NCBI GenBank assembly: GCA_050084515.1 | Contig: CM114271.1 | Span: 7,874,001 to 7,938,000 of the forward strand | Reading direction: 5' to 3' | Length of the DNA stretch: 64,000 nucleotides | From: Blasia pusilla | Lineage: Eukaryota | Shown: positions 79 through 60,483 of the stretch, piece after piece | How the letters are laid out: each line of letters opens with the position of its first letter | Position numbering within the stretch: the first letter of the stretch is position 1 | Notes under the pieces: model-generated | Seen by the model: only the letters and a program-made list of their open reading frames with translations | Database searches by the model: none | Told to the model about the DNA's origin: nothing | Made by a program: the position numbers and the translations under genes

Positions 79-5128
<5,050 letters not shown>

Positions 5129-12139: not shown

Positions 12140-13110
12140 CTGACGTTGCTCAGCCACTCCCAAGCTGAAGATCCATGTCAAGCAGTTCAGGTCCATCGCC
12201 TAACCCAAGATATGGCGTTGTGATGCCTCTCACACTCACGGTACTGCCGTCACTCTTGTGGGAAATCCCATCGCCCGATCTCTCTCGCCGGCGTTGGGCT
12301 CCACCAACCTCTAAACCTGGTCATCCTAAACCAAGCCAAGACCAGCCTCCTTATATGCATAGGAAGCGAGAAAACTCACAAACGTGGGAAAGGCTCCCCG
12401 CGGCCGGCCTACGCTGTTGACCACAGTCAACAGCGGTCGATCATCGTGCCTCACTACTTGTGATCGATGACCCGGATCCAGAATGGAATCCACTAACAAG
12501 TGGGAGGGGCGCTCCACTCTTGCATACGCCCTCTGCAACACCTCATGTGGTACCATGTTGGTCCACCACAGACGCAAGCGATATGCTCGAGAACCCACAC
12601 TCGCCGCATCCAAAACTAATGCTGGGCCAATCCGGACATGCACCTGATGTGCACTCGTCACCACCCGTGACCTCGAATCGCCCAAGATCAATACATTCTC
12701 TAGAATGTAAGCCGGAGAACGGGACTAATGCTCTTGCAAATATCTCAAGACCCTCAACATCTCCCAAAATAACGTGGATCGTGTGTCAACCAACCCGATG
12801 CCTCGTCGAACACTCAATTGACCCTCACATGGCCAACCTGCAATGACCAAATCAACGGTCCCTACCCGCTCCAAGTCCTGCGTCCCCAGCAACAAAATAT
12901 CCCTCGGTAGGGAACTGTGGTATCCCTGTACCGCGGTTGTAGACAAAAAGTTGGGAAAACATAGGCGTAACTATGCCACAAGTTGTAGTGAGATGCGCCT
13001 TGCAGGATCATCACTCTCCACATACAGGTACTGCTGCACTCGCACTCATGCTTGCAAAACAGCAGCTAATCCGGTGCTAATCCCTCCAAAGAGATCTAAC
13101 ACCTAAATAC
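12140..13110 (-). pseudogene. DNMT3-like C5-cytosine DNA methyltransferase domain inside Gypsy pol (copy 1)
   Basis: Motif I VLDLFGGIST, motif IV DLVIAGWPCEG, motif VI YILENV, motif VIII AYRLRLWWTN, motif IX ERS.GFP, motif X region MDLNCLTWIF; several in-frame stops. Confidence 0.9.
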
Positions 13111-16085: not shown

Positions 16086-16798
16086 TGTAAAGCCCAATGT
16101 CTCTTTCTCCTACACAAAATTCGGCAGCGCTTCCGCGCTGATTTCTCCCAACGAAAATGTAAAACCTATTAATAAAAATTAGAAAACTACATGGTGCTCC
16201 CCAGAGCACCGGCATGGGGCAACCGGCCCCCATAATCATTCCCTATCAAATTTTGGGCAGCCCTTCCGCGACCCACTCTTTCACACGAAAAATTGGCAAA
16301 TGCAAAGAACAATCAAAGCAGCCCTTGCTTTGATTGGGACATGTCTCTCTCAATGTCAAACCAAACCCACTCTCCTAATGAGAGGCTTGGGTTACACACA
16401 CAAGGCAAGCAAGATCATAGCTCCGCCGCCTCATGCCAAGAGGTTCAACAAAGAGAGAATGAGCTCTCAAGCTCTCTCTCCTTGAGGTATACCCCTCCCC
16501 TCTCCCAAGCTCTCTCCATGGTAACCTATGCTCCCAAGTCACCTCCTTGGCTCTTGACCTGATGTATGAGGTCAAGGGCCACTTACCAAAAATTGAAAGT
16601 CGATCACATACTCAAAATGGTACTTATCTAAAATAGTAAGTTCCTCAATATGGTTCCAAATGAGCGGAAACGAAAGGGAAACCTCCTCTCTCAAGTTTCC
16701 TTGGGGCCTTAGCAGGTCATCTTGACCTATTAAGCCTGTCCTCCGCTACTCACGAAGGCGCTCTACTAGATCTTACCGATCTCTTAAGAGATGTGACA
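16086..16798 (-). repeat. Putative 5' LTR of Gypsy-DNMT copy 1 (family E)
   Basis: TGTCAC...GCTTTACA on minus strand; homology to 45838-46720 begins exactly at the TG. Confidence 0.7.
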
Positions 16799-26800: not shown

Positions 26801-29800
26801 GTCTCCTGATAGTCTAAACCAGCCTCCTGATTGAAGCCTTTTGCAACCAGACGTGCCTTGTACTTCAAGATCTCATTCTTTGGTCCCCTTTTTATTCTGA
26901 AGACCCATTTGCAACCAATGGTCTTTCTACCAGGTGGCAAATCTACAAACTCCCATGTCTCATTTTTCTCTAATGAGACCTTTTCTTCTGCCACAGCCTG
27001 CTCCCACTGTTTCGAATCATTCCTGCTCATAGCCTCACTCAAAGAGTTGGGCTCTACAACTCCTTCAATAGAATGAGCTTCGTTTATCCCCAACCTTTCT
27101 ACAGGTTTGGAAATTCTTCCAGATCTCCTTTGCTCTGAGATCTCCTTGATCACTCCCTCTGTGGACTCATGTGCCTCTATAACTTGCTTGGCTGCACTTC
27201 TCCTTTGGTACACCTTCATAGGCTGATCATTTTCAACATGATCTTCCTCTCTTACACCTTGGGTGCAAGTATCTAATCCTCCACTACATTCTGCAAGTGT
27301 ATCCTTTGATACTTCCTCCTTATCAGCATCTTGATGTGAGTATGACACTACAGGGATGATTACAGGAGTGACAACAGAACTGGTTACTGGCACCACTCTG
27401 GTGACCATTGACTCTTTGTGCTCAGAGTCTTTCCAAAAACTCTTCTCATCAAAAGTCACATCATTGCTTCAAATTGCCTTGCAGGTTCTAGGATTATACA
27501 ACATGTATCCTTTCAGCCCTTCTTCATACCCAACAAATATGTACTTGTCAGCCTTTGCATCTAGTTTCCTCCTTTGTGTATCAGGGGTGACGGCATAGCC
27601 AACACAACCATAAAAGAAAAACAGGAGTAAACAAATACTGACTTTGATTACAGAGCTAATTTGTTTCTCCAAGCTCCAAGAAGTTACAGCAGATTACAGA
27701 TACATGGAATAGCTTCACAGACGTCAAATAGGAAAGGAAACTCTGTACTTACCAAAACATGAGAGAGATCTGATTGATCTACTACTCATAAACTTCCTCC
27801 CTATAGGAAGAAGAGACTCTCTACACTATTGATGCCTTTCCAAGCAGCACACTATCTCCTCCAGCAGCAGGTCCTCCAAAACATCAACTCCTTCTATCAC
27901 AATAGGTCAGCCACCCAAGCTGAGGGGCAGCAATACTGAAGTTCGCAGGTCCAGGAGCTGGGAATAGTAGAGAAGAGAATAAGAGTGCTCTGGTAAGCCT
28001 CTTGCTCTTATAGGATAGCCCCTGGCTATCTTAAACCCTAAAAGTCTTTAACTAAGGCTAAAGGAGGCTATTATGAAACCCTAAAGGTTTTTAACTAAGA
28101 CTAAAAAAGCTATTGCGAAAACCTATAGGTAATAAACCTAAAAATAGAATTTTACTTATAGATAAAAAAAGTAACTTTTCATAGTAAAAAACAGAATTTT
28201 TTGCTCCTGATCTTACGGTTGCAATTTCAACACTCCCACTCAACGTGAGCTCAGGTGTATTCCAATTAACTCCATGCACCTTAGGTGTTTAACCTTGGTG
28301 AGAGATTTTGTGAACACGTCAGCTGCCATGTCCTCTGTTGCACAGTGTTCTAATTCAATTTCCACTCCAACCTTTTCCCGTATAAAGTACATTGTATATC
28401 AATGTACTTTGTCCTCGCATGGTGTATCGGATTCTTGGTTAGATCAATACTGCCCCGGTTATCAGCATACACTTTTGTAGGTCTTGCTTGATGGCATCCA
28501 AAACCATCAAGGAGGCATCTAAGCCATATTGCCTCCTTGGCAGCATGTGTTAGGGCCATGTATTCTGCTTCACATGTGGAAAGTGCTACGGTGGATTGTC
28601 TCTTGCTGCTCCAACTAATAGCTCCTCCACACAGCAAGTAGCAATATGCAGAAGTAGATTGTCTATTGTCTAGATCTCCTGCCCAATCGGCGTCACTGTA
28701 ACCAATTAGATCTACTTCTGCCTCTTTGATATATGTGAGGCAAAAGTCGTGAGTGCCTTTCAGGTATCTCATCACACGCTTGACAGCTTGCCAATGTTGC
28801 AAGCCAGGGTTGTGCATGAACCTGCTCAAAACTCCCACTGTGTATGCAAGGTCTGGCCTTGTGGCAACCATTGCATACATAATGCAGCCCACTGCATTCT
28901 GATATGGTATGTTAGCCATATCATTCATCTCCAATTCAGTTTGAGGACACATTTCCTTGGTAAGCTTGATTCCTACCTCCATGGGTGTCCCTACTGGATT
29001 ACAATCACCCATAGAAAAACGATTGATGACATTCTTCACATATTTGGTTTGGCTCATCTTGATCCAACCAACATCTCTATTTCTAGTGATTTGTATTCCG
29101 AGTAAATAATTTACTTCTCCTAGATCAACCATTTCAAAAGCTTCACTCAGTCCACGCTTCAGCCTGTGCATAGTTTTCAGGTCTTCACAGAGGAGTAACA
29201 AATCATCTACATACAGTGCTATGTGAATCACAATATTCAACATGTGATAAACACTGGGATTTGCCCTATTCTTGTGAAAACCCAACTTCTGAAAATAACC
29301 GTCAATTTTCTCATACCAGAGTCTTGACGCTTGCTTGAGTCCATATAAAGCTTTCTTCAGCAACCATACCTTGTCTCCATCCTTGAAACCTTCTGGTTGT
29401 TGCATGTAAATCTCCTCATGCAATTTTCCATGGAGGAAGGCGGTTTTTACATCCATTTGATGTATCTCCCAATTATGCTTTGCCGCTAATGCTAGCAAGC
29501 TTCTTATGGAAGTAAATTTTGCTACAGGAGCAAAAGTTTCTGCATAGTCAAGTCCTTCAATCTGACTGTAGCCTTTAGCAACTAGTCGAGCTTTATACTT
29601 GACCACCTCATTCTTAGGTCCTCTTTTCACTTTGAAGACCCACTTGGAACCGATTGCCTTCCTCATGGGGGGCAAATTCACCAACTCAAAAGTCTGATTG
29701 CTTTGGAGAGATCCCATCTCTTCATGTACCGCTTGCTCCCACTGGATGGCATCATCTCTAGTGAGAGCTTCTTCAAGACTTAGCGGTTCATCAGCCTCTA

Positions 29801-32800
29801 ACATTCCTGATGTACAACCTGCATTATCAAGGGCTTGGTAACACACTTCAGCCAGATGCGATTCCTCTGTGAATCTTTCTTCTTGCTGGTCAGTCTCACC
29901 TTTTCCAAGACTTATCCCAAGTCGAATTGGAATTTTGGATGTCCTTGTTGATTTTCGAACTGGAGGTTGTTGCTCTGTGCCTGTAAGATAACTATCGGTA
30001 CTCTCTAATGGTACTTCTGATGTTTCTACATCAGGCTTTCTCCTTACGTAAAATCTGGTTGGAGATAATCTCCTTGGAGATTTATCAACCTCATCATCAT
30101 TTTCTTCAACCTTGATATCTTTAAAGAATGTCAACTCCTTTTCAAAACTGACTTCTGCAGTGCTAGTAATGCTGCTACCAAGATCTTTCTCATTGAAATA
30201 GACATCCCTACTTCTGATTGCTTTCTTAGTGCTTGGATTGAAGAGTCTGTACCCTTTACATCCAGGTTCATACCCTAAGAATATGCATTTCTCCGATTTG
30301 GAGTCTAGCTTTGTTCTTTTCTCCTTTGGAATCAAAGCATAAGCACAACACCCGAAAACTTTCAGGTGAGAGAGATCTGGTTTCTTACCACTCCATGCTT
30401 CCTCTGGTGTCAAGTTGTCCAATGCTGTTGAAGGACTCAAATTCTTCAAGTAGTTGGCAGTAGTTAGGGCTTCTCCCCAAAATTCTCGACCAAGGTTTGC
30501 TGTGGAGAGCATGGACCTGGTTCTTTCAACCAATGTCCTATTCAATCTTTCAGCTGCTCCATTCTGCTCTGGACTGCTCCTTGCAGTAACTTGACTCTTA
30601 ATTCCCTTTTGAGATAAGAAATCTTTGAACTGTTTGTTGATGTATTTGTTGAAATTTGTTAATATCTAGTTTAGTCATGCTCTAAAAATAGTTAGTCAAA
30701 TACTAACTTAGTTGGATACTAATTTAGTTAGCTAGAGATAACTTAGTGTTCCTCTATCTTTTAGGGTAACCTTGAATTAGGGCAATTCTCGAGTTAGGGC
30801 TAGCCACCATCTGTTATTTAGGGTATGGATCTGTTCAAGAAGATCCAAGGGCCAGAAGTGCTCACCCTCATGTATATAATGTTTCTGTTTAGAGAGCAGA
30901 AGCCAATTCTACAGCATGCACAGTTTTGGTGAGAACTCCTGAGGCTCTTGGTCCTGCTGCAGAGTGATCAGAGAGTAGGAAGAGGAGATTGAGACTAATT
31001 GCTGTGCTTGCTAGAGCCTCACTGGAAGGCAGGTGGTTTTGTCTAGTATGCTGATGGAGATTGTTTGTGCTCAATGGTGAGCCATGTCTGATCTCTGAGC
31101 TGGTGACATGTGAGGACTTGTAGTGTGAGTGCAAGGTGTGGCTGAGTAGAATCCTTCTTAGTATCTCTTAGATAGTAAGAAGAGTCACATCATGGTAGGG
31201 CTCTGATTTGGCAATAGAGACAAGAACTGATTTGCTGATTGTGTACAAGCTGAAATCATGGATGGTCTAGTTGATGCTAGCTCTGACTTTGTACAAGGAG
31301 ATACTTCTGCTGGTCAATCATATTCTCAGTATTCTCCACCTCCATCAGTTCTAAGCACTTTCACTTTCAGGCCAAGCTCATTCTCAACCTCATTGACAAA
31401 ATGCTGAAATCTGTCCAAGACTTCATCCTTTGTCTTCATCAAGTAGACAAACGTCCTTCTTGACTTGTCATCAGTGAAAGAAACAAAGTATTTTGCACCT
31501 CCGCGAGATGCTACTTTCATCGGTCCACACACATCAGAGTGGATGAGCTCAAGCTTTTCTCCTACTCTAGTTTTGGACTTCTTAGGTATAGAAGTTCTAC
31601 TCTGTTTCCCTTCTATACAACCTTCACAAAAGAATTCTGAACTATCAGGTTGTAAATGGAATCCAACAACCATCTTCTGGAGTTTCCTCATATTCTGAAT
31701 TCCCAGATGTGCTAGTCGCCTATGCCAAATGTCTAAAGAATTTTCTTCAGATCCAATGTTGGCTGATTCTTCATCAACATGTGTTGTATGAAGTTTATAA
31801 AGCTGATTGTTCACAATCGAAGCTTTTCCGATTTCAGTTGTATCATGATAAAAAATAATGCAATGATCATCTGTAAACAACACTTTGAAACCCTCACTTG
31901 CTAAGACTTTCACAGAGATCAGATTTTTTCCTATCTCAGGAATATAAAGGACATTTTTGAGAAGTAATTCTCTACAACCTTTCAGATTTAGATGAACTTC
32001 ACCTTTGGAAGAAGTTTCCAGCTTGTGATTGCTTGCCACTGTTACATTGCGTGTAGAGATTTTCTGAATGTTGCTAAAACAACTTCTCTTACCGCACATG
32101 TGAGATGTTGCTCCACTATCAATGTACCAAGCATCCCCAGAACTTGATTCGAATGGTACATCACCTTCCAAAGTCATGAATAGTTGATCATCATCGCTAT
32201 CTTCAACCACATGAGCTTTCTCGGAAGTGTTGAACTTTCCCAAGCTTTTCTTCTTGCCTTTCAGGTCTCTCACTTTTTTCCAACAGACCTCTTCTGTATG
32301 GTCCAGCATGTTGCAATATTTGCACTTGAGCTTCTTCTTGCCCTTTTCATTGTACCTTCTCTTACCAACCTTGGCAGCAAGAGCGATCTCATCAGATACA
32401 TTGTTCCTACCAGCATGCTTCGATTCTTCATTGATGAGTTGTCCGTTGACATACTCCAGGGTAAGTTTCTTTTTCTCTTGAGCTTCCAGCACAGTACTCA
32501 CAGTCTCAAAACTCTTAGAGAGAGTGCTGAGAAGTAGACCTACTTGGAAAAAATCGTCTACTTTGAAACCTCCTTCGATGAGAGTAGAAATCATCCCTTT
32601 CACCCTCGCCACATGAGAAGCAACAGGTTCAGATTTGTCCTGGCGCAAGTTCACAAGGTTCCGAAAAACACTATAGATGTGTCCTACAGATTCAGTTTGT
32701 AAGCCTTCTTTCACAGTCTCCCACATGGCATGAGCATTTGGTTTGTCACGGGCCATCTTTATAGCAGAGTCTCCCATGTTCATAACCAATGCAGCCATTG

Positions 32801-35800
32801 CCCTATTGTTGGATTTGATCCATTCTGCATCCAACAGTTGCATTGTTGTTGGTGCACATTGGACCACTTCCCAACAATCCTTATGACAACAAAGGATCTT
32901 CATTTCAAAAGACCACTTTCTCCAATTAGTAGCGTCTAATTTCTTGCTAACCCAGTGATCTATATCACTTCGTGGGTCCATAACCTAAAAGAAAAACAGG
33001 AGTAAACAAATACTGACTTTGATTACAGAGCTAATTTGTTTCTCCAAGCTCCAAGAAGTTACAGCAGATTACAGATACATGGAATAGCTTCACAGACGTC
33101 AAATAGGAAAGGAAACTCTGTACTTACCAAAACATGAGAGAGATCTGATTGATCTACTACTCATAAACTTCCTCCCTATAGGAAGAAGAGACTCTCTACA
33201 CTATTGATGCCTTTCCAAGCAGCACACTATCTCCTCCAGCAGCAGGTCCTCCAAAACATCAACTCCTTCTATCACAATAGGTCAGCCACCCAAGCTGAGG
33301 GGCAGCAATACTGAAGTTCGCAGGTCCAGGAGCTGGGAATAGTAGAGAAGAGAATAAGAGTGCTCTGGTAAGCCTCTTGCTCTTATAGGATAGCCCCTGG
33401 CTATCTTAAACCCTAAAAGTCTTTAACTAAGGCTAAAGGAGGCTATTATGAAACCCTAAAGGTTTTTAACTAAGACTAAAAAAGCTATTGCGAAAACCTA
33501 TAGGTAATAAACCTAAAAATAGAATTTTACTTATAGATAAAAAAAGTAACTTTTCATAGTAAAAAACAATTTTTTTTGCTCCTGATCTTACAGTTGCAAT
33601 TTCAACAAACCAAACACTTTCAATCTAGAAATGTCAGGTTTCTTACCAGACCAGCTCTTACTCTTCTGGAGTTACATTCTTCAAGGCCGCTGTGGGACTG
33701 ATGTTCCTCAGATAATTCGCTGTCATGATAGCTGCTCCCCAGAATTCTTGACCAAGCTTGGCATGTTGCAACATGCTCAAGGCTTTCTCTTGCAAGGTTC
33801 TATTCAACCTTTCAGCTACTCCATTTTGGTGGGGGCTGTCACGTGCCGTAACATCTTTTAATATCCCCTTGGCTGAGAGATATGCTTGAAAGTCTTTACT
33901 TGCATATTCTCCTCCTCCATCAGACCTAAGTCTCTTCACTCTTCGTTCAACTTGCCTCTCTGTCATATTGACAATGACAACAAATTTCTCTAGAACTTGA
34001 GCCTTGCTGATTATCAGGTACACAAAGCTCTTTCTACTCTTGTCGTCCACAAATGACACAAAATAGCGTGCTCCTCCTAGTGACTTTACAGGCATTGGTC
34101 CACACACATCAGAGTGAATCAAGTCCAATAATCTTTCAGACCTGTTAAGTGACCTTCTGGGAGCGGGTGACTTGTGAGCTTTCCCTTGCACACAAGCCTC
34201 ACAGAACTCAAGCTTCTGTGACTTCTCAATCTCCACACCACATGACATTCCTTGCAGAGCTCGAATGCTGTGTTCCGATAGGTGCCCCAATCTGCAATGC
34301 CACAGATTCAGCAAGCTCCTATTCTCAGTGAGATTTACCTGTTCCTCTGGATCACATTCCAGCAGTTTGAACAAATTTCCTTGTACCACTCCTCGGCACA
34401 AGACTTTCCCGTTTCTTTCAAGTGTGCAAGTCTGGTTTGAGTTCCAGAAGTGCACATCAATTCCTGCCTCCAATAATTTCTTAACTGACAACAGATTTTT
34501 TATGTAATCTGCAACATATAACACTCCATGCAGCTGCCATTTCATCAATTTGCTTTCATCAGCACTGAAGAAAATAGAAACTGAGCCAAACCCTCCCACA
34601 GGACTTAACAATCCAGAAGCACTTCTCACGTGATGATTACTTGCTGGTTTTAGGTCTGAGAACAACTCCTCTTGATAACAGACATGTGATGTTGCACCGG
34701 AGTCCACCCACCATCCACTGCTCCTCTTGAGATCTTTCTCACACGAGGCCATCATGAAAGAACAACAACTTTCATCAGATGTGTATTCAGTAGTCATCAC
34801 TCCAGCAACCTTTGCCTTATCCTTCTCCCTGTAGGAGGTACTTTGCTTCTCCATCAACTTCTCTTGATTCTTGACTGCAGATCCACTCCTTTTAACTTTC
34901 TCTCCCCTTTTCAACTTCTTTGGACAATTGCGAGCAAGATGTGAGAATATGATTGACCAGCAGAAGTATCTCCTTGTACAAAGTCAGAGCTAGCATCAGT
35001 TAGACCATCCATGATTTCAGCTTGTACACAATCAACAAATCAGTTCCTATCTCTATTGCCAAATCAGAGCCCTACCATGATGTGACTCTTCTTACTATCT
35101 AAGAGATACTAAGAAGGATTCTACTCAGCCACACCTTGCACTCACACTACAAGTCCTCACATGTCACCAGCTCAGAGATCAGACATGGCTCACCATTGAG
35201 CACAAACAATCTCCATCAGCATACTAGACAAAACTACCTGCCTTCCAGTGGGGCTCTAGCAAGCACAGCAATTAGTCTCAATCTCCTCTTCCTACTCTCT
35301 GATCACTCTGCAGCAGGACCAAGAGCCTCAGGAGTCCTCACCAAAACTGTGCATGCTGTAGAATTGGCTTCTGCTCTCTAAACAGAGACATTATATACAT
35401 GAGGGTGAGCACTTCTGGCCCTTGGATCTTCTTGAACAGATCCATACCCTAAATAACAGATGGTGGCTAGCCCTAACTCGAGAATTGCCCTAATTCAAGG
35501 TTACCCTAAAAGATAGAGGAACACTAAGTTATCTCTAGCTAACTAAATTAGTATCCAACTAAGTTAGTATTTGACTAACTACTTTTAGGGCATGACTAAA
35601 CTAGATATTAACAAATTTCAACAGTACGGGCTACTGCTGGAAAGGAAAATCAGCAACTGGGCTGAAGAAAAGAAGGTGCGAGCCAGAGGACAAGCAGCTT
35701 TCCGACACTCACATAGCACCCTGGACCACCTTCTCACACTCCGGGTACTGATTGAAAAAACTTCCAAGTCAAGAATTGGTCACAAGCCCGGTAAATTGTT

Positions 35801-38800
35801 CTGCTGTTTTGTAGACTTCAAGAAGGCCTTTGACACAGTCCCAAGGGCGCTCCTTTGGAAACGACTTGAAGAGTTGGGTGTCCCACCACAACAACTTACA
35901 GGTCTTATATGCTCAGGTGTTTGCACAAATTGCCACTAAGAGGGGCAGATCTGAAACTTTATCTTCCAACACCGGAGTCAAACAAGGATGCCCCCTCTCA
36001 CCTACATTGTTTGGACTCTACATTGTCGAACTTGAAGAGGTGCTTTCTGGAGTGAATGGAGATCCACCAGAGCTAGCACACTGCCTCATCCCCCCTGCTC
36101 TTGTATGCAGATGATATAGTTCTAATGTCTAGAACAGCACATGGGCTCTAACTTTACCTGAATGCACTTTCAAGCTTCTGCAACAAATCGGGCATGGAAG
36201 TCAACTTGCTGAAAACGAAGATAATCATCTTTGGATCACAGCTCCCTACGGCGCAGCGGTCACGCACTTTCACCTTCAGCCAGGGACTGAGAAGGGAGAT
36301 CATTGAGATTGTGGGTGAGTACATATACTTGGGGGTGCAACTCAAACCCAACAACCAATGGAGAGCCAATGGGAGTCGCAACAAGATCAATGCAGGCTTG
36401 AGGGGTCTACACCTGCTACAATCCAATTGCAGAAGAATGGAACTGTGGCATATTCCACAGAAACTCCATCTCTTAAAAGCTCTGGTGATCCCAGCCACAC
36501 TCTATGTGGGGCCCCAACTCCAAGGCTTGGCCCCAGGGCCTTGAGGCCCCCCAGAAACTCTTCATGCGTCAGAGTCTGGGCATTAGGAAAACCACTCCCC
36601 ATGACATTCTACTGGCTGAGTTTGGGGAGGTACCAGTGGAGATGCATGCTGTTAAAAATCTGATCACATTACTCCAACACCTTGAGGATATCTGCGAGGA
36701 CGATCCCAATCGTCTATCCGCCAGGGCCTACGTGGTTTCAAAAAGTAGTGCCACCCTTGGGGCTAAAAATTGGTACCATGACTGCACGGAGTGGCTCATG
36801 AAATGGGGAATATCCATCGGTGACCTGCCTCCAGCCACCCACCAGGACCTTGCTGAACAATTACACAACAATTACATTGCCATCAACTGGGGCTGACACC
36901 AGCGTCTCTGGGAAAGCAGGGGGAATTCCTCTCACAAAAATGGTGAAAGAATGAGGCGCTACCACACCCTCATGAACAACTGCAGATCCATGCAGCAAGC
37001 CTCCTACATCTCTGCCCCCATTCCCACTAAGTTACATCATACATTAGACCGATTCAGATGTGGCCCTACTGACCTGGAGATTGAGAAAGGAAATTCTCTC
37101 TGACGAAAATGGAGGGCAGATTATGTAGATTTTGCAACTCGGGGCTTGTTGATGATGAACATCACTACCTCTTCGACTGCACCTTTCACGATCACATTAG
37201 GCTTGACTTCCCGGATCTCTTTGTTCACCGGGCTCCCAGGGTCCTCCCGTTCATGGCTAGGCAGAATCAGACTCAGATTTCTAAATTCTTGCATCGTTGT
37301 GTGAAGACCAGGGACACTCACATGGCTCTGAGGACCCCTTAGGCCCTCACTGGTGCTTGCTCTCTCTCCAAAATTGTTGTTAAGTCTCAATATTAAGTCC
37401 CATGGCCCTGTGGGGTCCCCGTGGACAAAAAATCTATTCATTCATTCATTCTTATTGTCCTTTTGGGTCCCTTGGACACAAAATCAGTTCACTCATCAAT
37501 ATCTATTGTCGAGAACTTTGTCAGGAGGTGCCCCAAAAGCTCCTTTCCAGATTTTGGATTCTATTAAGTTTGTGAAAGCCTATATCTGGGGCGTTGAGTA
37601 TTAAAACCTCTTAGGTTCAACATACAAGCAATATTGCATGTGTTCTGGAAGTAAGAAACCTGAAAGTGGCAAACTTCTTTGTTCATGGCCAACATTTACA
37701 GTTGTGAATGATGAATGATGTGTAAACTAAATATTAACAAATTTCAACAACCACAAGGTAAAATTACCTTGTGGTTGTTGAAATTTGTTAATACTTAGAC
37801 ACTGTGTCAAAGGCCTTCTTGAAGTCTACAAAACAGCAGAACAATTTACCGGGCTTGTGACCAATTCTTGACTTGGAAGTTTTTTCAATCAGTACCCGGA
37901 GTGTGAGAAGGTGGTCCAGGGTGCTATGTGAGTGTCGGAAAGCTGCTTGTCCTCTGGCTCGCACCTTCTTTTCTTCAGCCCAGTTGCTGATTTTCCTTTC
38001 CAGCAGTAGCCCGTACTGTTGAAATTTGTTAATATCTAGTTTAGTCATGCCCTAAAAGTAGTTAGTCAAATACTAACTTAGTTGGATACTAATTTAGTTA
38101 GCTAGAGATAACTTAGTGTTCCTCTATCTTTTAGGGTAACCTTGAATTAGGGCAATTCTCGAGTAAGGGCTAGCCACCATCCGTTATTTAGGGTATGGAT
38201 CTGTTCAAGAAGATCCAAGGGCCAGAAGTGCTCACCCTCATGTATATAATGTCTCTGTTTAGAGAGCAGAAGCCAATTCTACAACATGCACAGTTTTGGT
38301 GAGGACTCCTGAGGCTCTTGGTCCTGCTGCAGAGTGATCAGAGAGTAGGAAGAGGAGATTGAGACTAATTGCTGTGCTTGCTAGAGCCTCACTGGAAGGC
38401 AGGTAGTTTTGTCTAGTATGCTGATGGAGATTGTTTGTGCTCAATGGTGAGCCATGTCTGATCTCTGAGCTGGTGACATGTGAGGACTTGTAGTGTGAGT
38501 GCAAGGTGTGGCTGAGTAGAATCCTTCTTAGTATCTCTTAGATAGTAAGAAGAGTCACATCATGGTAGGGCTCTGATTTGGCAATAGAGACAAGAACTGA
38601 TTTGCTGATTGTGTACAAGCTGAAATCATGGATGGTCTAGTTGATGCTAGCTCTGACTTTGTACAAGGAGATACTTCTGCTGGTCAATCATTTTCTCAGT
38701 GGTATGTGGCAGACTGATTTGCTGAATAGTTGGGAGCGTATACTCTCTCCTTTCCCCCTATCTGCAATTCTTCCCCTATATTCTTCTGATCCCATCCAGT

Positions 38801-45837: not shown

Positions 45838-46720
45838 TGTCACGTCTTTTAGGATAGATTGGTGAGATGTAGTAGAGCCCCTTTGTGAGTAGTGGAAGAC
45901 AGGCTCAGTAGGTCGAGGATGACCTGCTGAGGCCCTGGGAAACTTGAAAGGGCAGGTTTCCCCTTCATTTCGGCTCATTTGGAGCCATATTGAGCAACTT
46001 ACTATTTTAGGCAAGTACCATTTTGAGTATATGATCGACTTTCTATTTTTTGTAAGTGGCCCTTGACCTCCTACATCAGGTCAAGAGCCAAGGAGGTGAC
46101 TTGGGAGAATAGGTTATCATGGAGAGATTTTGAGAGAGGGGAGGGGTATACCTCAAGGAGAGAGAGCTTGAGAGCTCATTCTCTCTTTGTTGAACCTCTT
46201 GGCATGAGGCCGCAAAACTATGGTCCCTTGCCTTGTGAGTGTAACCCAAGCCTCTCATTAGGAGAGTGATTTTGGTTTGAAATGAAAGAGAGTGTACACC
46301 TTTGAGAGCTATGGTTTGAGATGGTGTAGAGAGAGATTGGATCTTACTTTACAAAGAGAGAATGAGAGAATGAGAAAGTGAGAGAGCTTCATGGGGGAGC
46401 TCGCTGGTCACTCCCTGTTTTTGCAGGTTGGGGACCGTGTTCCCCATTCAGCGGCTCATGGGAGTGCTCACCGGAGCAAGGGCTGCTTTGATAGTCCTTT
46501 ACATTTGCCGATTTTTCGTGTGGAAGAGTGGCGCGCAAAAGCGCTGCCCAATTTCTGATAGGGATTAATTATGGGGGCGGGTTGCCCCATACTAATGCTC
46601 TCAAGAGCATCATATAGCTTTTTGATTTGTATTTTTATAGGTTTTACATTTTTGTTGGGAGAAATCAGCGCGGAAGCGCTGCCAAATTTTGTGTAGGAGA
46701 AAGAGATATAGGGCTTTACA
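45838..46720 (+). repeat. Putative 5' LTR of Gypsy-DNMT copy 2 (family E)
   Basis: TGTCAC...GCTTTACA; homologous to 16086-16798 with ~170 extra bp. Confidence 0.7.
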
Positions 46721-49700
46721 ATAGTCCCCTTCAGTTTTTACAGGAATTTTTAATTCCAAATATTTTTTGATGTTGTTGTGGATCATGAAGTTGTGCACAC
46801 TGTGCCACAAACAGTGCATAATTTGGAGTTGCGAGTAAAAAGTTATGGTCAATCTTGCAAAACTGCCATTGCTAGGCAATTTTTAGGGTTAAATTGTTCA
46901 AACCCTAAATCAGCCGCCACGCCGGCGGCGGCCGTCGCCATCATAGTCACTGTCACCTGTCAACGGTCAACCATCACCATCAACAGTCCGTCATCACCAT
47001 CAATAGTCCACCGTCCATCGACCACCGTCGGCCGTTGTCCACCCTTTGGTTGCCATTGCCGCCATTACAGAGTGGAGGGTCTTCCACGACGTTTGTTGAT
47101 TCTCTGACTTGCATCGCCACCACGTACTTTGTTTTGGACGCCAACTTCATCAAAGTTTCATCGTCAAGCACTAACGGAAAATGACCTCTAGTTATGGTGT
47201 TTGAGTTTTGATTTCATGGTGCTATGTTATGATTGGTAGCTGCTCGACGACGATCGAGTACCGTGCCGTGACGCCTGTAGCCGCAACGCGCCGCCGATTG
47301 CCGTGCCGTGCCGTGCCGCTTATGGCCGCACCGCACCATCTCGATCACGGAGTCGCACCGTCATTGTGGAGGATAGTGTGGATTTATTGTTGATTAAGGA
47401 GGGTATGCCATAGAGTGCCGCATCCCACCATCGAGGGCCGTGCCGTTTGTAGCCGTTCGGTGCCGCCTGGAACGCCGCACTGTTCTGTTGGAACTGCACT
47501 GTCTATCGAGGAGTTTTGAGCAGCGTTAGTATGGGAGGAGTACGACCTGCTGATTGGAGGAGTTGTCTCCATGATCGAGTTGGGGTTGAGATTTGCAGTT
47601 GCTGAGGAGCGACATCGACATGTGTTCAGGTTACCCATTTTGGTCCTTTACCCTGCACGCATGAGGGATGTCTGGAGTTGAGGGTAGGTTGTCAATGAGA
47701 TGATAGCCTGGTCGATTTTCTGCACCATGCCGCTTGTTGCCGCACGTTACACGTCTCGGGGAGGGAGAGTGTAGATCGAGTGCCGCATGTTTGGGATGAG
47801 TGATTGAGGGATTACTCGCGAGGTTGAGAGTGATCGTGTGAGGGGGGCACGAGGGCCATTACGGCGTCCTTTCAGGATTTTGAGAGGCGAGGTAGAGGAC
47901 CTAAGAGTAGCTCTGGAGGGTTTACCCGGAGTGGTGCGAGGTTTTGAGGGTCTCCACGTGAGAGACAAACTCGATCTCCTTCTGTGTTGTCTTCAGACAA
48001 GGGGGAGCATATAGAGAAGTTTGTGAGCACATCGCCACACATTGTGAGTGGTCCTACTAGTTGGGCGTACGAGATGGACGATCAAGGTAGAGGACCGCGT
48101 AGGTTTTCACGTGCAGTAGGCACGATTGAGTTGCACGATTTCATAGCAGAGTTTAGGAGTTGGTGCGACTCCCAGCGGGCCAAGAACTCTAGAGAGTTCA
48201 ACCCGTTTATAGCATGAAACAGTATGTTCCAGCATTTAGAGGGGGCGCCCATGGACGATTACCATACGTTCTCTCAGAGATATGCACGTGAGATGGAGGC
48301 GTGGAGGCTCTACTATGACCCACATTATGTGTCATGGATGGAGCCGTTCCCAGACGAGGAGGAGGAGTCAGGAGAGGTAACTTCCTCTTCCACTAGTGAC
48401 GTTGTAGGAGGGGTCACTCACACGGGAGCAGTTGCACCGTCTAGTCAGGTTCGTCCCAGGTTCAACCCTGTGGTTGAGTTCTTTGCTGAGTTGAGGGCGA
48501 GCTACCAAGGGGTACGGACGGAGAAGTTGAGGAGCATCCATGACTTCCAGAGGCGCCCGGGTGAGAGTTTGCGTGAGGCTTACACTCGCTTGTGCCGGTT
48601 GATCAACGTCACTCAGGGGGTGAATGGGGCTCAGGCTATCTAGTCATGGTACGCAATGCTGGACCGGACCCTGCGGACACGGGTGCGGGAGGGGGTGCTC
48701 CTTATGAACACCTCCCCTATGTTGAGAGATGCTCTACGGAGGAGAGTGTAGCCACCATGGGTTCTGGGCGAGAGTAGTCACGATTGCCTGCACTACCTGT
48801 GCAGCAACGTGGACTCCGAGATAGTTTGACTGTGGCACCACGAGCTCAGGGAGGATACCGGGGGGCTGTGCCACAGAGACCTGCGCCTTCATATGCGGCT
48901 CAGCAGCAGCTGCCTACTATTACTTGTTGGTCATGTGGTGAAGCCCATCATTAGCACGATTGCACTCGTCAAGGTCATGGACATATGCCTCAACATGGAG
49001 GAGGAGATGGTGTTGCACCAGGAGGTTATCAGTGTGACTATTTTTCAGAGGTATGGTCGTACACGTGCCATTTGTTTCAGTTTGCATCCTGAGTTACGTC
49101 CGGACTAAAGGCCAGAGAGGGCACTAGAGCGAGTAGCCGGTCCGGGTGGGCCTAGAGATTGTGCACCATGTGCTCCTGTTGGGGGACAAGAAGCTGGAGT
49201 TTCCCGACAGGATGGTGGAGTTGCCCGTGGAGGACGTAGAGTACCATCACCTAGACGCACCGAGGAAGACGCCAGACGTGAGGCTGGGATGGCTGCTCAG
49301 ATACAGCAACTACAGGAGCAGATTGCTGTTATGACATTGAGGTTACCCAATGTCGGATCCGTGGCATCAACATCATATGGAGCAGCCAGAGATCTGGAGG
49401 ATCCTGGTTGGATATGCGGGGTTGCCCAAATGGAGACAGCCGCAGTTGTGACGCGTGGAGCAGCCGCAGAGTTGGATCCACAGCGAGGGGAAGCCAGGAA
49501 AAAGACTAGGCTTCCTCAGTCTTTCACGTTGTCCGAGGCGATGAGGACCCCATCGATGGGTCCTGATCAGAGTTCCTAGAGAGTTGGTGATGTTGTTGGT
49601 GTGCAGGAACAAAGGGCGATGGGAGAAAAGAGTGCGACGACTCCTATTGTTGATGCTGAGGAGGGACATGTGTTAAGCACGTTGTTGGGGGCGGCCGCCG

Positions 49701-50764
49701 TCCTATACCGCACTCCTTTATTTTCAGCTTCCGATGTTATGAGGTTGGGGGGTACGCCCGTCGAGGCTTTTTGGCTGGCCGCTTCACTATATGAACGCGG
49801 AGTTGGAGTTCTTGTATAACGTTTAGAGGTGATTGCAGAGGAGATGATGGACCTGTCCTTGGAGCGGATGCTCGGGCCGTCCACATCATATTCATGGCAG
49901 GTTGCGGCTGCTAGGATGGCGGAGATGCCCGCTAGACCCGCGATAGAGCGTGCCATGGCTTCTCTTGGTGTTGTGTTGTTGGATAACCAAGGAGAGGTCT
50001 TCCAGTTGATGAGTCCCGGAGGTAAAGCTTTTATTCCGCAGCGCGTCTTGTTGGATTCAGAGCGCACAACCACTGATGTTGGGGAAAGCATCATTCAGAG
50101 GATTGGGCTTGACGAGAGCCGATGTGGAGCGTTGTCCATTCCGGATACAGACATCCTTGGGTGGAGTGAGTACCACACAGTATATCACCCGACAACATGT
50201 CGTGGTGAGGATTCGCCCGGTACATCCTACAGATGAGTCCGTGGTGCGAGCCAAGGCGATAGTGACTGATGCAGAGTCCTACGACGTCTTGGTTGGTGGA
50301 GCAGTGTTATACCCAAGGAGTTTCCTCTGGATTACTGGGAGGAGTCAGCGTCCTACAGATCAGGATGGCAGTCAGGTGATGGGCGCCTTAGCTTATTACC
50401 CGTTTGATTCATAGGTGTAGTGATTGAGCAACGGCCAGGAGAGATGGCGACCTTAGCAACATTTAGCAGTGCCATCACTTGGCCTAGTGATTTGATTGAG
50501 GGACATGTCCATGCAGAGGATATTCCTTTTCTTAACATTTCTATGGAGAGAGGCGTTATGGTAGCCGCATCATTCCGTGGAGGAGAGGTGCCGATGTGGG
50601 GCTTGACTAAGGAGCTTCGACGATTGGCAGATGAGCACGTGCAGACCGCGTGGAGCGAGGCATTTTCAGTGGAGCGTGACGGGTCTGAGGAACCCGATGT
50701 AGCAAGGAGTGATACGATGATACCCTTGGATATCACACCCATTGTGTGGTGTATCTCGGAGGAG

Positions 50765-51720
50765 GCTATTCGAGTGTTAGATCTCTTTGGAGGGATTAGC
50801 ATCGGGTTAGCTGTTTTTTTGCAGGTATAAGTGCGCGTACAACAATACCTGTATGTGGAGAGTGATGATGTTGCGAGGCGCGTCTCACTACAATATGTGG
50901 TGCGGTTACGCCTTCGTTTTCCCGACTTATTGTCTGCGTCCGCGATACAAGGGTACTAGAGTTCCCTATCGAGGGATATTTCGTTGCTGGGGGCAGAGGA
51001 CTTAGACCGGTTAGGCACCATTGATTTGGTCATTGCCGATTGGCCATGTCAAGGCCAATTGAGTGCTGGATGAGGCAGCGGGTTGGCTGACACTCGATCC
51101 AGGTTGTTTTGGGAGATGTTGAGGGTCTTACGGCAGTTGTAGGAGCACTAGTCTCGTTCTCCAGCCTACATTTTGGAGAATGTGCCGATCTTAGGAGACT
51201 TCAGATCACGGGTGGTGACGAGTGCTCATCAAGTGCATGCCTAGATTGGCCCAGCATTGTTCTTGGATGCGGCGAGTGTAGGTTCTAGAGCCCATCGCCC
51301 GCGTCTATGGTGGACCAACTTGGTGGCCCATGCGGTATTATGGAGGGCGTATGCGAGAGTGGAGTGCCCCTCCCATTTGTTAGTGGATTCCATTCAGGAT
51401 CCAAGTTGTCGCTCACAAGCAATGAGGCACGATGATCGACCACCGTTGATTGTGGTCAACAGGGTAGGCAAGCCACGGGCAGCCTTTCCCACGTTTGTGA
51501 GTTTTCCCGCTTCCTATGCATACAAAGAGGCCAGTCCTGGCTTGGTTTGGGATGACCACGTTCAAAGTTTGGTGGAGCCCAACGCCGACAAGAGAGAGGG
51601 GGCGATGGGATTTCCCATAGGAGTGACGGCAGTACCGTCAGTTTCAAAGGCATCATGACGCCATGTCTTGGGTCAGGCGATGGACCTGAATTGCTTGACA
51701 TGGATCTTCAGCTTGGGAGT
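50765..51720 (+). pseudogene. DNMT3-like C5-cytosine DNA methyltransferase domain inside Gypsy pol (copy 2)
   Basis: IRVLDLFGGIS (I), YLYVE (II), DLVIADWPCQG (IV), YILENV (VI), DAASVGSRAHRPRLWWTNL (VIII), EPNADKREGAMGFP (IX), LGQAMDLNCLTWIF (X); several in-frame stops. Confidence 0.92.
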
Positions 51721-53635
51721 GGCTCAGCAGCGGCGGATGAGATCGCCACAGATCACAGTGGTTACGTTCGTAAGCCCCATGCTTACTGAGAGGGTGGAGG
51801 CAGTGGCTGGGGTCAAGACCCGAGTAGATCGACAAACCATGCGAGATCGGGAGAGACACCCTTAGACTTCTTGGGATGTTTTGCAGGTACGTCAGGAGAT
51901 GATAGCCATAGCATCAAGCGTGGTTCCGCGCACTGCATGTGGAGGAGATCAGAGTTTGCACTTAGCTGTAGGAGAGCGGTCGAGTGTCGTTGTTTGAGAC
52001 GGGGTTGCACCATAGCAACCACCGATATCCGCGCCGGAGAGTCCTACCGTAGTCACGATGGAGACTTGGGAGCCAGATATGGGCCTTAAGTTGATTGGAG
52101 GAGAGCGGCACCGAATACATCAGTTCCTAAGGAGTTATAGGAGATGCTTTGCGTTTAGCATGGAGGATTTTGGTACGCTGAAGGGACCAGGGATCTGCAT
52201 TGAGTTTTCGAGTGATACGCCGATCTTTCGACGACCCTACAGGTACAGTGATATGGAGAGGGCTCTGATTCAGAGTAAGAGCCAGGACTTAGTTGGAGCA
52301 CGACTAGTGGAGATGTCGCATGGGGAGTATGCATCTGCCATTGTCCCGCCCGCCAAGAAGGATGTGCATGGCAAGTGGACGGATAGATGGATGTGTGGGG
52401 ATTACCGACCTATCAATCGGCAGACGAAGTCCGATAGGTATGCCATGCCCACCCCTGAGGAGATCTTTGATGCGATTGATCACGCAAAGGTCTTCAGTTT
52501 ATTGGATTTGCAAGTCGGATACCATCAGCTGCCTATCAAATTGGAGGACAGGCAAAAGACGGCATTTTGGGGCATCGATTCTCACGGGAAGGATTGTTTG
52601 TATCAATGGCAGTTCTTACCATTTGGGTTGAAGAATGCCTTGGATGAGTTTCAGAGGGTCATGGATAGGATCTTGGTTGGTTTGGATTTTGGTAGGTATT
52701 ATATTGATGACATCGTAGTCTTTAGCGCCGCGGTTGAGGAGCATGAGCGACATCTAGTGAAGGTGTTTTGACGATTGCAATTACATGGGCTGAAGCTACA
52801 TCCAGGCAAGTGCAAGTTCTTTTACAACTAGATTGAGTACTTGGGTCATAGGATATACCCATGGGGCCTTGGTGTTCAACAGACAAAGGTAGAGGCTATC
52901 TCACGCATTCCACGCCCTACATATGTGAGCCGTGTTCGCGCATTCATGGGATTGGCGAACTTCTATCGGCGGTACGTCAAGGGATTCAGTTCGATTGCAA
53001 AGCCGCTGACCTTGCTAACCAAGGTGGATCACAAGTGGCACTGGGGGCATTTCAATTGCTCAAGGACACGTTGACGTCTGCGCCCATCTTGAGGAGACCG
53101 ATTAGGGGGCGTCCTTTCCAGTCGCACACAGATTGGAGCATGTTGGGGCTTGGAGCGGTGCTCACCCAGCATGATGATGAGGATAGAGAGTTTGTGGTGG
53201 CTTACGCTAGCCACTCGAACAACACTGCAGAGGCGAAGTACAACTTATATGAGGGTGAGTGCTTGGCTGCAGTGTGGGCTGTCATGCATTTCAGGTGTTA
53301 CTTATCCGGAAACCCCTTTACCATCATCATTGATCACCAACCACTGAAGTGGTTGATGGTGTCCAACAAGCTTACAAGGAAGCTTGCAAGATGGGCTTTG
53401 TTGTTGCACGAGTATGATTTTCAGGTGGTACATAGACCTAGGATGCTCAACCAGGATGCAGATGGGTTAAGTCATAACCCATGCCCGAGTCACCGAGATG
53501 CAACTGGAGCTCGATGGCATGGAGAGAGTGATGAAGAGTCAGTGCCAGGATGGCACGCGTCAGCCTATTTAGGCATGTTGGCTATGGAGAGCCAGAGTGT
53601 GGAGACTTCGATGGCGAGATCTAGTGGAGAGTCCT

Positions 53636-54852
53636 TGTGATACCCACAATTTTGTACTCTTGAAGAATATATCTTTTTATTCAACGAAGACTCTTGTATA
53701 TTATGATTTTGATTATGATTATTTATTATTATGAGGAAGAATGAGTGAATCATGAAGCTCCTGGGACAAGGTAGAGAGATGGAAGATCAAGGATTTGCCT
53801 TAGAGGAGAGGAAAACGCAATAACGAAGTCCCAAGACTCAGAACGAAGATGTACGAAGCTCAATGAAGATGTACGAAGCTCTGTCTATGAAGTGCTTCGC
53901 TACATAACGAAGCATCACGAAGAAAAGAAGAAAGAAGTACTTCGCTCTTGTACGAAGCACGAAGCACCAGAAATAAGAACGAAGCATGGAGTACTTCGTC
54001 CTCATGAAGTCCAGCGAAGCGAAGCTAAGAAGGACTGTGATTTCAAGCCACACAAGTTAGAACAATTAAACTAGGAAAGGGCGCGACCCTTTGTATCAAA
54101 TTGGTAGTTAGAACAGTTTTGTACGGCGGATTCACAGGGATCGTAGGAAAAGCTAAGAGAACCATAGATCTAGGTAGTTAGAAATAGTGAAGAGACACTA
54201 GCTTCATCAAGAACTTTTTTAATCTTTGGATCACTTCCACTCCAGCGAATATTTAGGAAGCAAAGCAGAAGCCATAATCATCATTCTCTTACGAAGTCCT
54301 TATGTTGTAGGAATGGTCCGAGCAAGAGAGTAGTACCCTCTCGAGCTTGTATACACTTTGAAGCTTTCTCGTTCTTGATGGAGTAGTAAAACAATCATTC
54401 ATTCATTCATTCTGATGTGCGATGCTTATGTCTGAGTATTCTTTTTGGGTCTACAGAGTGAAGGGTGAATCAGGCGAACCTTTCTCATCAGTGAAATAAT
54501 CAACATGAGTTGTAGGAAATCTGTTTGACAGAGAGTAACCTGCCGAGACGGATTGAGTTCCAAAAGTAGGAGAAGTCAGCTTTTGTGTTGAGGTCTCTGT
54601 GAGGTTTCTTAATGTCGAGAGGAAAATCTACCTGAACATGCTGTCAATTCCACTAGACAAAATGGAGAAAAGATCCTTTGGTACTAAGAAAGATCAGAAG
54701 ATATTGATAAGACATTGAATGTAACTCATCCATAGTTAAATACAGCTATTACAACATAATTGTATTTCCGAACTCTCTTTTCATCAAACAATGATCCTCT
54801 TGGGGATCGAACTTATTAAACGACTATAAAATAGAAACACTTGTACATTACA
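53636..54852. mobile_element. Solo LTR, family C (copy 2), inserted in Gypsy copy 2
   Basis: TGTGATACCC...CATTACA; TSD GTCCT (53631-53635 / 54853-54857). Confidence 0.95.
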
Positions 54853-54907
54853 GTCCTTGGATCCTGGGGCCAATGAGGAGACCATAGGTGGTCGAGATAT
54901 TCATGAT

Positions 54908-59757
<4,850 letters not shown>

Positions 59758-60483
59758 GGGGGCTGGTATTCTGGCAGGAGAGAGTAAGAGAGGAGAGGAA
59801 GAGAGGAAGAGAGGAGAGTCTCTCTTAAAAAAAAAGGGCCAAATCCGCCTCCTCTCTTCAAAATTTTTGACATATTTGAAAAAAAATTTTGCTTTCAAAT
59901 TCAAGAAATATTTAGAAGAGAGTAGGTAGTGGTCCACATTTGGCCCTAGAAAAACCTAATTTTTCGTGGGGGCGAAAAAAAAGTATACATCATAAGACCA
60001 CTACAAACATTTTTCCATCACTCTCCATGTGAGCCTATTTCTTAACATTACCTGTCTCGGTCTACAAAAAGCAGTGCCCATGGGTATTTTTGTTGGAGGA
60101 CCACCTGAATGCCAACCTCTCTTTTTTGCGAGGGATTGATTGTTATCGCATCATGGCCTCCCTCAATTGCCCCATAACCAACTTTTCGTTGGTTATGAAT
60201 GGTGTCTGCTCAAGACCAACTTTGTGAAATGTGAACACATGAGAGGATAATTGAACCAAAAGATTGTTAGTATGCTGGAGTAAAGAGGAACGATGTCCCT
60301 TCATTCAAATCCTAAAGCGAGAAACCGAGAAGTCGCACCCTCCCAACCCGTAAGAAAGCTCACCATAAGAAAGGAAAGATTTTTAGAAGTGATTTTCTTC
60401 CACCCTGCACCACGACAATCTAACGGGTTGGGAATCCGAAATTGGCAATCCGACGGGTAGTAGGAACCCGCACATCTTAGACA

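Follow-up and report, generated by a model that had tools for sequence, protein, structure and literature searches.

A DNMT3-like cytosine methyltransferase domain inside pol of two decayed Gypsy-type retrotransposon copies in Blasia pusilla

A methyltransferase domain between protease and reverse transcriptase

Here, we focused on a stretch of 64,000 nucleotides from Blasia pusilla (GenBank assembly GCA_050084515.1, contig CM114271.1, positions 7,874,001 to 7,938,000 of the forward strand), referred to below as the window. The window very probably contains two decayed copies of a Ty3/Gypsy-type retrotransposon family in which a single gag-pol frame encodes a DNMT3-type domain of approximately 340 residues between the protease and the reverse transcriptase (RT), and which belongs to the KnitGypsy-Dnmt3 lineage known from the charophyte Klebsormidium nitens. 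In a self-comparison of the window, positions 10249-16798 on the minus strand (copy A) and 45838-53618 on the plus strand (copy B) were approximately 86.5% alike.

In copy B, the methyltransferase domain covers positions 50690-51766, or 359 residues in a single frame with seven in-frame stops and no frameshift. The domain of copy A, from 13174 down to 12041, is likewise readable and contains nine in-frame stops. The two translations align without gaps and are identical at 265 of 354 positions (75%). In both copies the protease region precedes the domain and the RT follows; in copy B, domain and RT share a frame. Motifs I (FxGxG), IV (PC), VI (ENV), VIII (RxR), IX and X of C5 cytosine methyltransferases occur in their normal order in both copies. 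Motif I reads LDLFGGIS, motif VI ILENV, motif VIII SRAHRPRLWWTN, motif IX REGAMGF and motif X LGQAMDLN, while motif IV is WPCQG in copy B and WPCEG in copy A, where PCE replaces PCQ. Across 31 family sequences with only 27-39% identity to the window copy, the PCQ cysteine, the ENV glutamate and the two arginines of motif VIII did not vary. Both copies scored above the curated cut-off of 22 bits for the Pfam family PF00145 (31 bits for copy B, 24 bits for copy A).

Sequence, profile and predicted fold all place the nearest likeness of this domain among DNMT3A, DNMT3B and DNMT3C, so that by likeness the label DNMT3-like is well supported. A single-sequence comparison of the METHYLTRANSFERASE with the PDB matched DNMT3A (8.5e-10), DNMT3C (1.3e-08) and DNMT3B (2.2e-07), with weaker matches to DRM2 (0.019), M.HhaI (0.09) and DNMT2 (0.095). 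A profile of 31 family members sharpened this picture. It matched DNMT3A (2.1e-24), DNMT3C (8.7e-23) and DNMT3B (1.6e-21), and more weakly tobacco DRM (2.2e-14), DRM2 (approximately 2e-11), M.HhaI (7e-9) and DNMT2 (approximately 6e-6); DNMT1 was not matched by this profile in the PDB. An AlphaFold model of the window domain, made with the family alignment, had a mean predicted local distance difference test score (pLDDT) of 91.7 and a predicted template modelling score (pTM) of 0.91. When this model was compared to the PDB with Foldseek, every match listed was a DNMT3A, DNMT3B or DNMT3C catalytic domain (best E 4.9e-18). The target-normalised TM scores were 0.40-0.82, and 0.74-0.82 for chains that consist of the catalytic domain only.

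The likeness to host DNMT3 enzymes (human DNMT3A and DNMT3B, mouse DNMT3C, and plant enzymes such as MpDNMT3b) extends beyond these best matches, all of which fall among DNMT3A, DNMT3B and DNMT3C. The motif order is unpermuted, unlike that of DRM, and little sequence separates motif VIII from motif IX. Unlike host DNMT3, however, the window domain has no adjoining PWWP or ADD domain and is embedded in a retrotransposon polyprotein; Pfam scans found neither PWWP nor ADD in three frames of copy B or in intact relatives. Identity between the window domain and the solved DNMT3 structures is approximately 20%.

An earlier reading of this DNA, made from the letters alone (hereafter the sequence-only reading), had proposed a DNMT3-like C5 methyltransferase inside pol of both copies, and these results bear it out. 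The order of motifs I, IV, VI, VIII, IX and X is confirmed by the translations and by the alignment with relatives, and the likeness of motif VIII to that of DNMT3 by a residue-by-residue alignment to DNMT3A. PF00145, the PDB profile and Foldseek agree on the nature of the domain, with both copies above the PF00145 cut-off, and its coordinates had been placed correctly.

Relatives, domain orders and selection

The sequence-only reading had also taken the same domain at the same position in two diverged copies as the sign of a stable family feature. Its conclusion holds, because dozens of relatives elsewhere share the domain order. Its argument does not, because the two window copies may be the arms of one inverted duplication (see below), and they are thus not usable as proof.

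Relatives were found among both proteins and metagenome contigs. A word-based search for longer proteins gave 21 matches, mostly from Marchantia polymorpha but also from Calypogeia fissa and Sphagnum fallax; a profile search for longer proteins, in which candidates were limited by shared words, added only protein P0188. A search for proteins of similar length gave 92 matches, with Calypogeia fissa, Sphagnum troendelagicum, S. tenellum, S. jensenii, Marchantia polymorpha, M. paleacea, Riccia sorocarpa and Closterium among the named sources. Protein identity to the window domain reached at most approximately 62-69%, and the higher of these values span short parts only. An exhaustive HMMER search of cluster representatives yielded 2197 clusters at E <= 1e-3 and 187 at E <= 1e-30. 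Numbers beginning with P denote these relative proteins, whose RT, RNase H and integrase were mapped with the window's own domains as queries and confirmed with Pfam. Numbers beginning with L denote metagenome loci, the best 80 of 102 confirmed relatives among 202 pattern matches in a scan of metagenome contigs. Viral contigs contained 12 pattern matches and no relatives.

Intact polyproteins (P0046, P0182 and P0187) have the order CCHC, protease, DNMT, RT, RNase H and integrase. The order gag, protease, DNMT, RT, RNase H and integrase is found in proteins of Marchantia, Calypogeia and Closterium, and the RT follows the DNMT domain in Marchantia and Closterium records; Sphagnum and Riccia contributed shorter DNMT-bearing relatives. 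Among the metagenome loci with enough sequence, 49 of 58 had an RT at most 1.5 kb downstream of the DNMT domain, whereas an RT or RNase H upstream of it was found in 0 of 36. Other members thus retain the domain.

A second architecture, in which the DNMT domain lies between RNase H and integrase, is more numerous in public proteins than the type found in the window. It was seen in 31 full examples and is represented by P0023, P0031, P0044, P0047 and P0050, among others; a 'pol' protein from the green alga Scenedesmus sp. PABB004 also has this order. In an unrooted FastTree phylogeny of 153 DNMT domains, of which 62 rows are unlabelled, the two architectures fall on opposite sides of a branch with support 96. 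On one side are 14 labelled rows with the DNMT domain before the RT, the window included, together with the K. nitens row; on the other side are 77 labelled rows with the domain after RNase H. The window copies fall in a group of 16 rows with support 100 that also contains Marchantia and Calypogeia sequences. The two architectures may reflect either one capture followed by a move within pol or two separate captures.

The K. nitens row leads to the one case in print. As described by de Mendoza et al. in 2018 (PMC5890265), KnitGypsy-Dnmt3 of K. nitens carries intronless DNMT3-related domains inside pol of a Gypsy-type element, has a Ka/Ks below 0.2 and resembles DIRS elements in the structure of its repeats. 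Although its record is partial, protein GAQ93235.1 (P0124) of K. nitens has CCHC at residues 297-313, the protease at 598-691 and the DNMT domain from residue 833, which is the order of the window. As this protein shares both the order and the side of the tree with the window copies, the window holds a member of the published kind, and by sequence its element is part of the KnitGypsy-Dnmt3 lineage rather than a separate invention. The likeness is close in several respects. In both, an intronless DNMT3-like domain directly follows the protease in gag-pol, and the K. nitens domain is on the window's side of the support-96 branch of the unrooted tree. Selection is of similar strength, with Ka/Ks < 0.2 in PMC5890265 and 0.21-0.24 among the relatives studied here, and the split direct repeats of these relatives (see below) agree with the DIRS-like repeats described there. 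The two differ in that the K. nitens domain is only 32-34% identical to that of the window, whose closest relatives with a species name come from liverworts and Sphagnum instead of charophytes. They also differ in a PHD finger at the end of pol, of which the main text of PMC5890265 makes no mention, its figure and supplements falling outside this count.

The DNMT domain is under long-term purifying selection among the relatives. Between the natural stop-free DNMT frames of loci L001, L007, L004 and L051, the ratio of nonsynonymous to synonymous substitution rates (dN/dS) was 0.21-0.24, compared to 0.83-1.80 in both shifted frames of the same locus pairs. The pair L004/L051 is saturated, and the near-identical pair L001/L007 gave 0.77 at a dS of 0.06. 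Neutral evolution of the domain, which the sequence-only reading had named as evidence against its proposal if the RT were conserved, was thus not what we found between intact relatives. At the same time, decay as in the window copies is the rule in the family.

The family is transcribed, which does not imply that an intact copy exists. Three RNA-seq runs with the same species label as the best DNA matches were mapped to copy B at 85% likeness, and their reads covered 30 of 30 bins. First mates were mostly on the minus strand (e.g., 41-78 versus 0.6-5.6 over the DNMT bins), which corresponds to coding-strand RNA if the library is of the usual stranded type. As only approximately 3-4% of the mapped reads were at least 95% alike, most of this RNA came from other copies of the family. 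Depth was highest over the first 520 bases (two bins, 45838-46357), both for RNA reads and for DNA contigs, as expected for a terminal repeat.

The relatives further show what lies at the ends of the element. A PHD finger ends pol after the integrase, with PF00628 scores of 32.9 bits in L039 and 39.6 bits in L072 against a cut-off of 24. Its positions, assigned with Pfam PF00628, are as follows:
L039: 14080-14382
L072: 9518-10069
P0023: residues 1605-1649

Four of the 33 loci of at least 9 kb (L007, L039, L072 and L079) have terminal repeats of 307-342 nucleotides around the coding region that are 88-94% identical and 8.5-8.9 kb apart. These repeats begin with TGTCATGACC. In the three loci examined (L039, L072 and L079), a segment of 111-118 nucleotides is found on both sides of the 3' repeat in every case. 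Conservation between loci stops at the end of this segment, and upstream of the 5' repeat the loci have unrelated flanks. The terminal repeats of the relatives are thus split direct repeats and not a plain pair of long terminal repeats (LTRs), despite the DDE integrase. The approximate ends of the full-length relatives are:
L039: 5765-15084
L079: 6024-14990
L072: 1676-10810

An element of DIRS order was considered and rejected, as a DDE integrase and an H2C2 zinc domain replace the tyrosine recombinase; only the repeat layout of the relatives is DIRS-like. The 5' repeat of the window had no DNA match in the 80 related loci.

Extent of the copies and their surroundings

Homology between copies A and B begins at TGTCAC (45838 in copy B and 16798 in copy A), beyond which the flanks are unlike each other, and stops at 53618, which gives the end of copy B. 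The features of the two copies are listed below.

Copy B
45838-46357, plus strand: 5' terminal repeat (LTR-like), starting with TGTCAC; the 3' border is approximate (start of A/B homology, differing flanks, depth peak)
46358-48088, plus strand: long leader from the terminal repeat to gag, homologous to copy A with large insertions and deletions
48089-49158, plus strand: gag, interrupted by stops and frameshifts (tblastn with residues 9-375 of Marchantia protein P0005)
49159-50689, plus strand: end of gag and protease region (tblastn with P0005 residues 339-1243, covering 49049-51880)
50690-51766, plus strand: DNMT3-like C5 cytosine methyltransferase domain with seven in-frame stops and no frameshift (Pfam, PDB comparison, predicted fold)
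52067-53026, plus strand: RT (Pfam RVT_1, 81 bits; tblastn with P0011)
53041-53618, plus strand: RNase H, in a frame other than that of the RT, breaking off at 53618 (Pfam RT_RNaseH, 106 bits; end of A/B homology)

Copy A
16344-16798, minus strand: 5' terminal repeat, 88% identical to 45838-46291
13273-14982, minus strand: remaining gag and protease region, with the counterpart of 48055-48893 of copy B deleted (self-comparison, tblastn)
12041-13174, minus strand: DNMT3-like domain with nine in-frame stops and PCE in motif IV (Pfam, alignment with copy B and relatives)
10329-11809, minus strand: RT and RNase H (Pfam RVT_1, 80.8 bits, and RT_RNaseH, 99.4 bits; tblastn)
9168-10215, minus strand: integrase with zinc-binding H2C2 and DDE core, in a frame other than that of RNase H (Integrase_H2C2, 51.5 bits; tblastn with P0182)
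8789-9064, minus strand: decayed remnant of the PHD finger at the C-terminus of pol (tblastn with P0023 residues 1551-1642, 42% identity)

Copy A has the pol order of Ty3/Gypsy elements, with protease, RVT_1, RT_RNaseH, Integrase_H2C2 and rve, which upholds the assignment made by the sequence-only reading. Its protease was mapped via relatives. The protease domain of P0182 maps onto 13947-13465, the counterpart of the protease region of copy B. The DDE core (rve) scored 30.4 bits in Pfam, under the cut-off of 32.6. Pfam found no PHD finger in 8398-9650 or 8789-9064 of the window, where it is recognisable via relatives only. The leader of copy B had no protein match in a Pfam scan or in tblastn with relatives.

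Both copies are truncated at the 3' end. Copy B has neither integrase nor 3' end, and the sequence-only reading, which had extended the element to 54907, was mistaken here: A/B homology ends at 53618, positions 53636-54852 belong to another repeat and 54917-59757 are like a long interspersed nuclear element (LINE). In copy A, no match to the 5' repeat was found in 5000-10300, even with 7-letter words, and of the terminal repeats only the 5' one is present in the two window copies, neither of which yielded a 3' repeat. A short tandem duplication (7794-8064, 77% identical) in AT-rich sequence (GC 0.36 over 6001-8000) occupies the place where the 3' repeat of copy A would be expected.

The two copies have similar neighbours. 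LINE-like sequences with Pfam RVT_1 are found at 110-5107 and 54917-59757, with an endonuclease-like frame at 54848-55597 on the minus strand. A repeat of approximately 1.2 kb, at 5178-6446 and 53636-54852, has the same absolute orientation on both sides. Long GA/CT dinucleotide runs, which translate as RERERE... or SLSLSL..., occur at approximately 5003-5100 and inside 54800-59900.

These surroundings raise the question whether copies A and B go back to a single, already dead copy that was duplicated long ago as part of an inverted segment, in which case they would be one witness and not two. We regard this as quite possible, at somewhat less than even chances. The layout is mirrored, in that copy A (minus strand) and copy B (plus strand) lie between two LINE-like repeats, the one beyond copy B being on the minus strand, and divergence is equal throughout (86.5-87.6% identity for the LINE-like parts and 86.5% for A/B). 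Two stops are also found at the same codon in both DNMT domains, although these could be parallel hits at hypermutable sites. The repeat between Gypsy copy and LINE-like part, however, is oppositely oriented relative to each arm, and the LINE-like parts are not colinear. The A/B dN/dS values are likewise lower in the true frame than in the shifted frames, with 0.38 versus 0.58/0.90 for DNMT, 0.51 versus 0.73/0.80 for RT and 0.39 versus 0.40/0.85 for RNase H, but only weakly so, and they are uninformative alone because both copies are dead. The mirrored LINE-like repeats, together with the 1.2-kb repeat, could reflect an old inverted duplication that was later rearranged. Whether there was one duplication or two insertions is immaterial to the identification of the element.

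Elsewhere in the window, an uninterrupted frame of 673 residues lies among the transposons at 18806-20824 on the plus strand and encodes a zf-XS domain (PF03470, 27.8 bits), which we take to be a plant-specific domain of plant SGS3/IDN2-type silencing proteins. This frame may be a gene or a captured piece. Its zf-XS domain and the nearest relatives of the element, in liverworts and Sphagnum, both point to a land-plant host, probably a bryophyte. A repeat of approximately 683 nucleotides occurs four times (24826-25506, 30647-31330, 34942-35839 and 37801-38700), 98-99% identical and in alternating orientation. These repeats surround long open Ty1/Copia frames, with RVT_2, copia-type gag and integrase in open reading frames at 25798-34983 on the minus strand. 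From their sequence, the Ty1/Copia frames look like young insertions, far younger than the Gypsy-DNMT copies. No Rfam families were found in the window, and ARAGORN found no tRNA genes there.

Possible roles and significance

What the data show is the identity of the domain, its order within pol, its fold class and the invariance of its catalytic residues, together with purifying selection among relatives and the fact that members of the family are transcribed. The window copies themselves are incapable of any activity, and a role would have to be sought in active relatives. There, the DNMT domain is translated within Gag-Pol and would therefore end up in the particle alongside RT and integrase. 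Using S-adenosylmethionine, it would methylate cytosines in the new complementary DNA (cDNA), or in the fresh insertion and its surroundings. New copies would in this way carry the mark on arrival in the genome, where maintenance methylation by the host could propagate it. The effect may be camouflage among methylated host DNA, or self-limitation. The C-terminal PHD finger probably reads histone H3 tails, which could bias the choice of integration site. We infer packaging, substrate, sequence context and benefit to the element. That the enzyme methylates the element's own cDNA or its insertion de novo, as suggested by de Mendoza et al., has in our judgement close to an even chance of being correct for active relatives, and probably no better than that. 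Taken as a whole, identity and mechanism together, this remains the best explanation of the data and is probably right.

Several observations weigh against it. As our own tree has no outgroup of host DNMT3, DRM or bacterial enzymes, the placement with DNMT3 draws on the comparisons with the PDB and on the tree published for the Klebsormidium relative. Both window copies are 3'-truncated pseudogenes, with the seven (copy B) and nine (copy A) stops in the DNMT domain and frameshifts elsewhere. Of the 44 metagenome loci with a full-length match, only three (L001, L004 and L007) have a DNMT domain free of stops. The reading of the transcripts as coding-strand RNA assumes the type of library. In PMC5890265, the Klebsormidium Gypsy domain produced no methylation in yeast, a result that its authors considered inconclusive since human DNMT3B failed too. 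According to the same source, the only activity shown for any DNMT3 of a retrotransposon is that of the DIRS element of the dinoflagellate Symbiodinium.

That element, SymbioDIRS-Dnmt3, produced de novo CG methylation in yeast (PMC5890265). As the sequence-only reading had stated, methyltransferase-carrying retrotransposons are thus on record from Symbiodinium as well as Klebsormidium, according to this source. SymbioDIRS-Dnmt3 and SymbioLINE-Dnmt resemble the window element in that a retrotransposon polyprotein includes a C5 methyltransferase, of the DNMT3 type in the DIRS element (PMC5890265). They belong to the tyrosine-recombinase DIRS and LINE classes, unlike the window element with its DDE integrase, and to another host lineage; the acquisition in Symbiodinium was judged independent by the authors. 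For DNMT-RT fusions, PMC5890265 cites Iyer et al. (2011).

An alternative to self-marking is action of the enzyme in trans, either on the host genome or on rival transposons, or a main role as a DNMT3L-like partner or decoy of host DNMT3; the element's own cDNA would then not be marked. The titles of the matched PDB entries show that DNMT3 enzymes oligomerise with related subunits, and the PHD finger that ends pol hints at an interplay with chromatin. The invariant Cys, ENV and RxR, however, argue against a purely non-catalytic role, and the position inside Pol would favour action beside the cDNA. We therefore consider action in trans or as a partner unlikely, if worth keeping in mind.

Less likely still is that the domain acts on RNA, placing 5-methylcytosine on genomic RNA or on the primer tRNA in the manner of DNMT2, and thereby aids packaging, stability or priming. 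The domain would accompany the genomic RNA in the particle. RNA methylation has been raised by the authors of PMC5890265 for the LINE-borne DNMT, and the Klebsormidium domain left yeast DNA unmethylated. The family profile, on the other hand, is much closer to DNMT3A (2.1e-24) than to DNMT2 (6e-6), the fold matches DNMT3A, DNMT3B and DNMT3C, and the DIRS-borne DNMT3 domain methylates DNA (PMC5890265).

The weakest alternative is a host DNMT3 pseudogene or one-off captured fragment in or beside a Gypsy copy. Host gene fragments are frequent inside plant transposons, and the window pair may go back to a single inverted duplication, with the mirrored LINE-like sequences at 110-5107 and 54917-59757 equally diverged (86.5-87.6%), but the domain is in frame with the RT in copy B and has no introns, intact polyproteins as well as 49 of 58 loci show the same order, and the domain is under purifying selection in relatives, which together leave this explanation with next to no probability.

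Chromoviruses are Ty3/Gypsy elements with a chromodomain after the integrase. They have in common with the present family a chromatin reader at the C-terminal end of pol, which here is a PHD finger and not a chromodomain. The EpiLTRs described in a recent preprint (bioRxiv 10.64898/2026.05.21.726589) likewise unite methyltransferases and a reader in one element, but their enzymes are DNMT4-related or act on adenine, whereas the enzyme here is of the DNMT3 type; in that preprint, the streptophyte Gypsy-DNMT3 is treated separately, as a case that came earlier. In the passages of later papers examined here, the known case is mentioned only as 'streptophytes (Gypsy-DNMT3)'. The full-text literature searched contained no printed description of liverwort or moss members; the supplements of PMC5890265 and PMC12344493, and the paper of Iyer et al. 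(2011), fall outside this scope.

Following the window copies beyond B. pusilla shows that the Klebsormidium case is not isolated, although the window itself contributes only two dead copies. The same architecture is found in liverworts and Closterium, and shorter DNMT-bearing relatives occur in mosses. Measured against the literature searched, what is added here is the broader distribution of the family, its second architecture, the PHD finger and the split direct repeats.

Cytosine methylation is the main route by which plants silence transposons, and a transposon with its own de novo methyltransferase is therefore a paradox. A far-reaching scenario would be that integrase-bearing Gypsy-like elements with split direct repeats acquired an epigenetic module of their own before land plants arose, with a DNMT3-type writer in Pol and a PHD reader at the integrase end. 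This lineage would survive, transcribed, in bryophytes including Marchantia, while a sister lineage, whose writer was shifted to a place between RNase H and integrase, spread in green algae. The module would deliver pre-methylated copies into chosen chromatin, and gene exchange with plant DNMT3 would be possible. In its entirety this scenario is speculative, and we think it improbable that all of its parts are right. As members of the family are found in Marchantia polymorpha, a tractable model, the role of the enzyme may be tested with natural copies.

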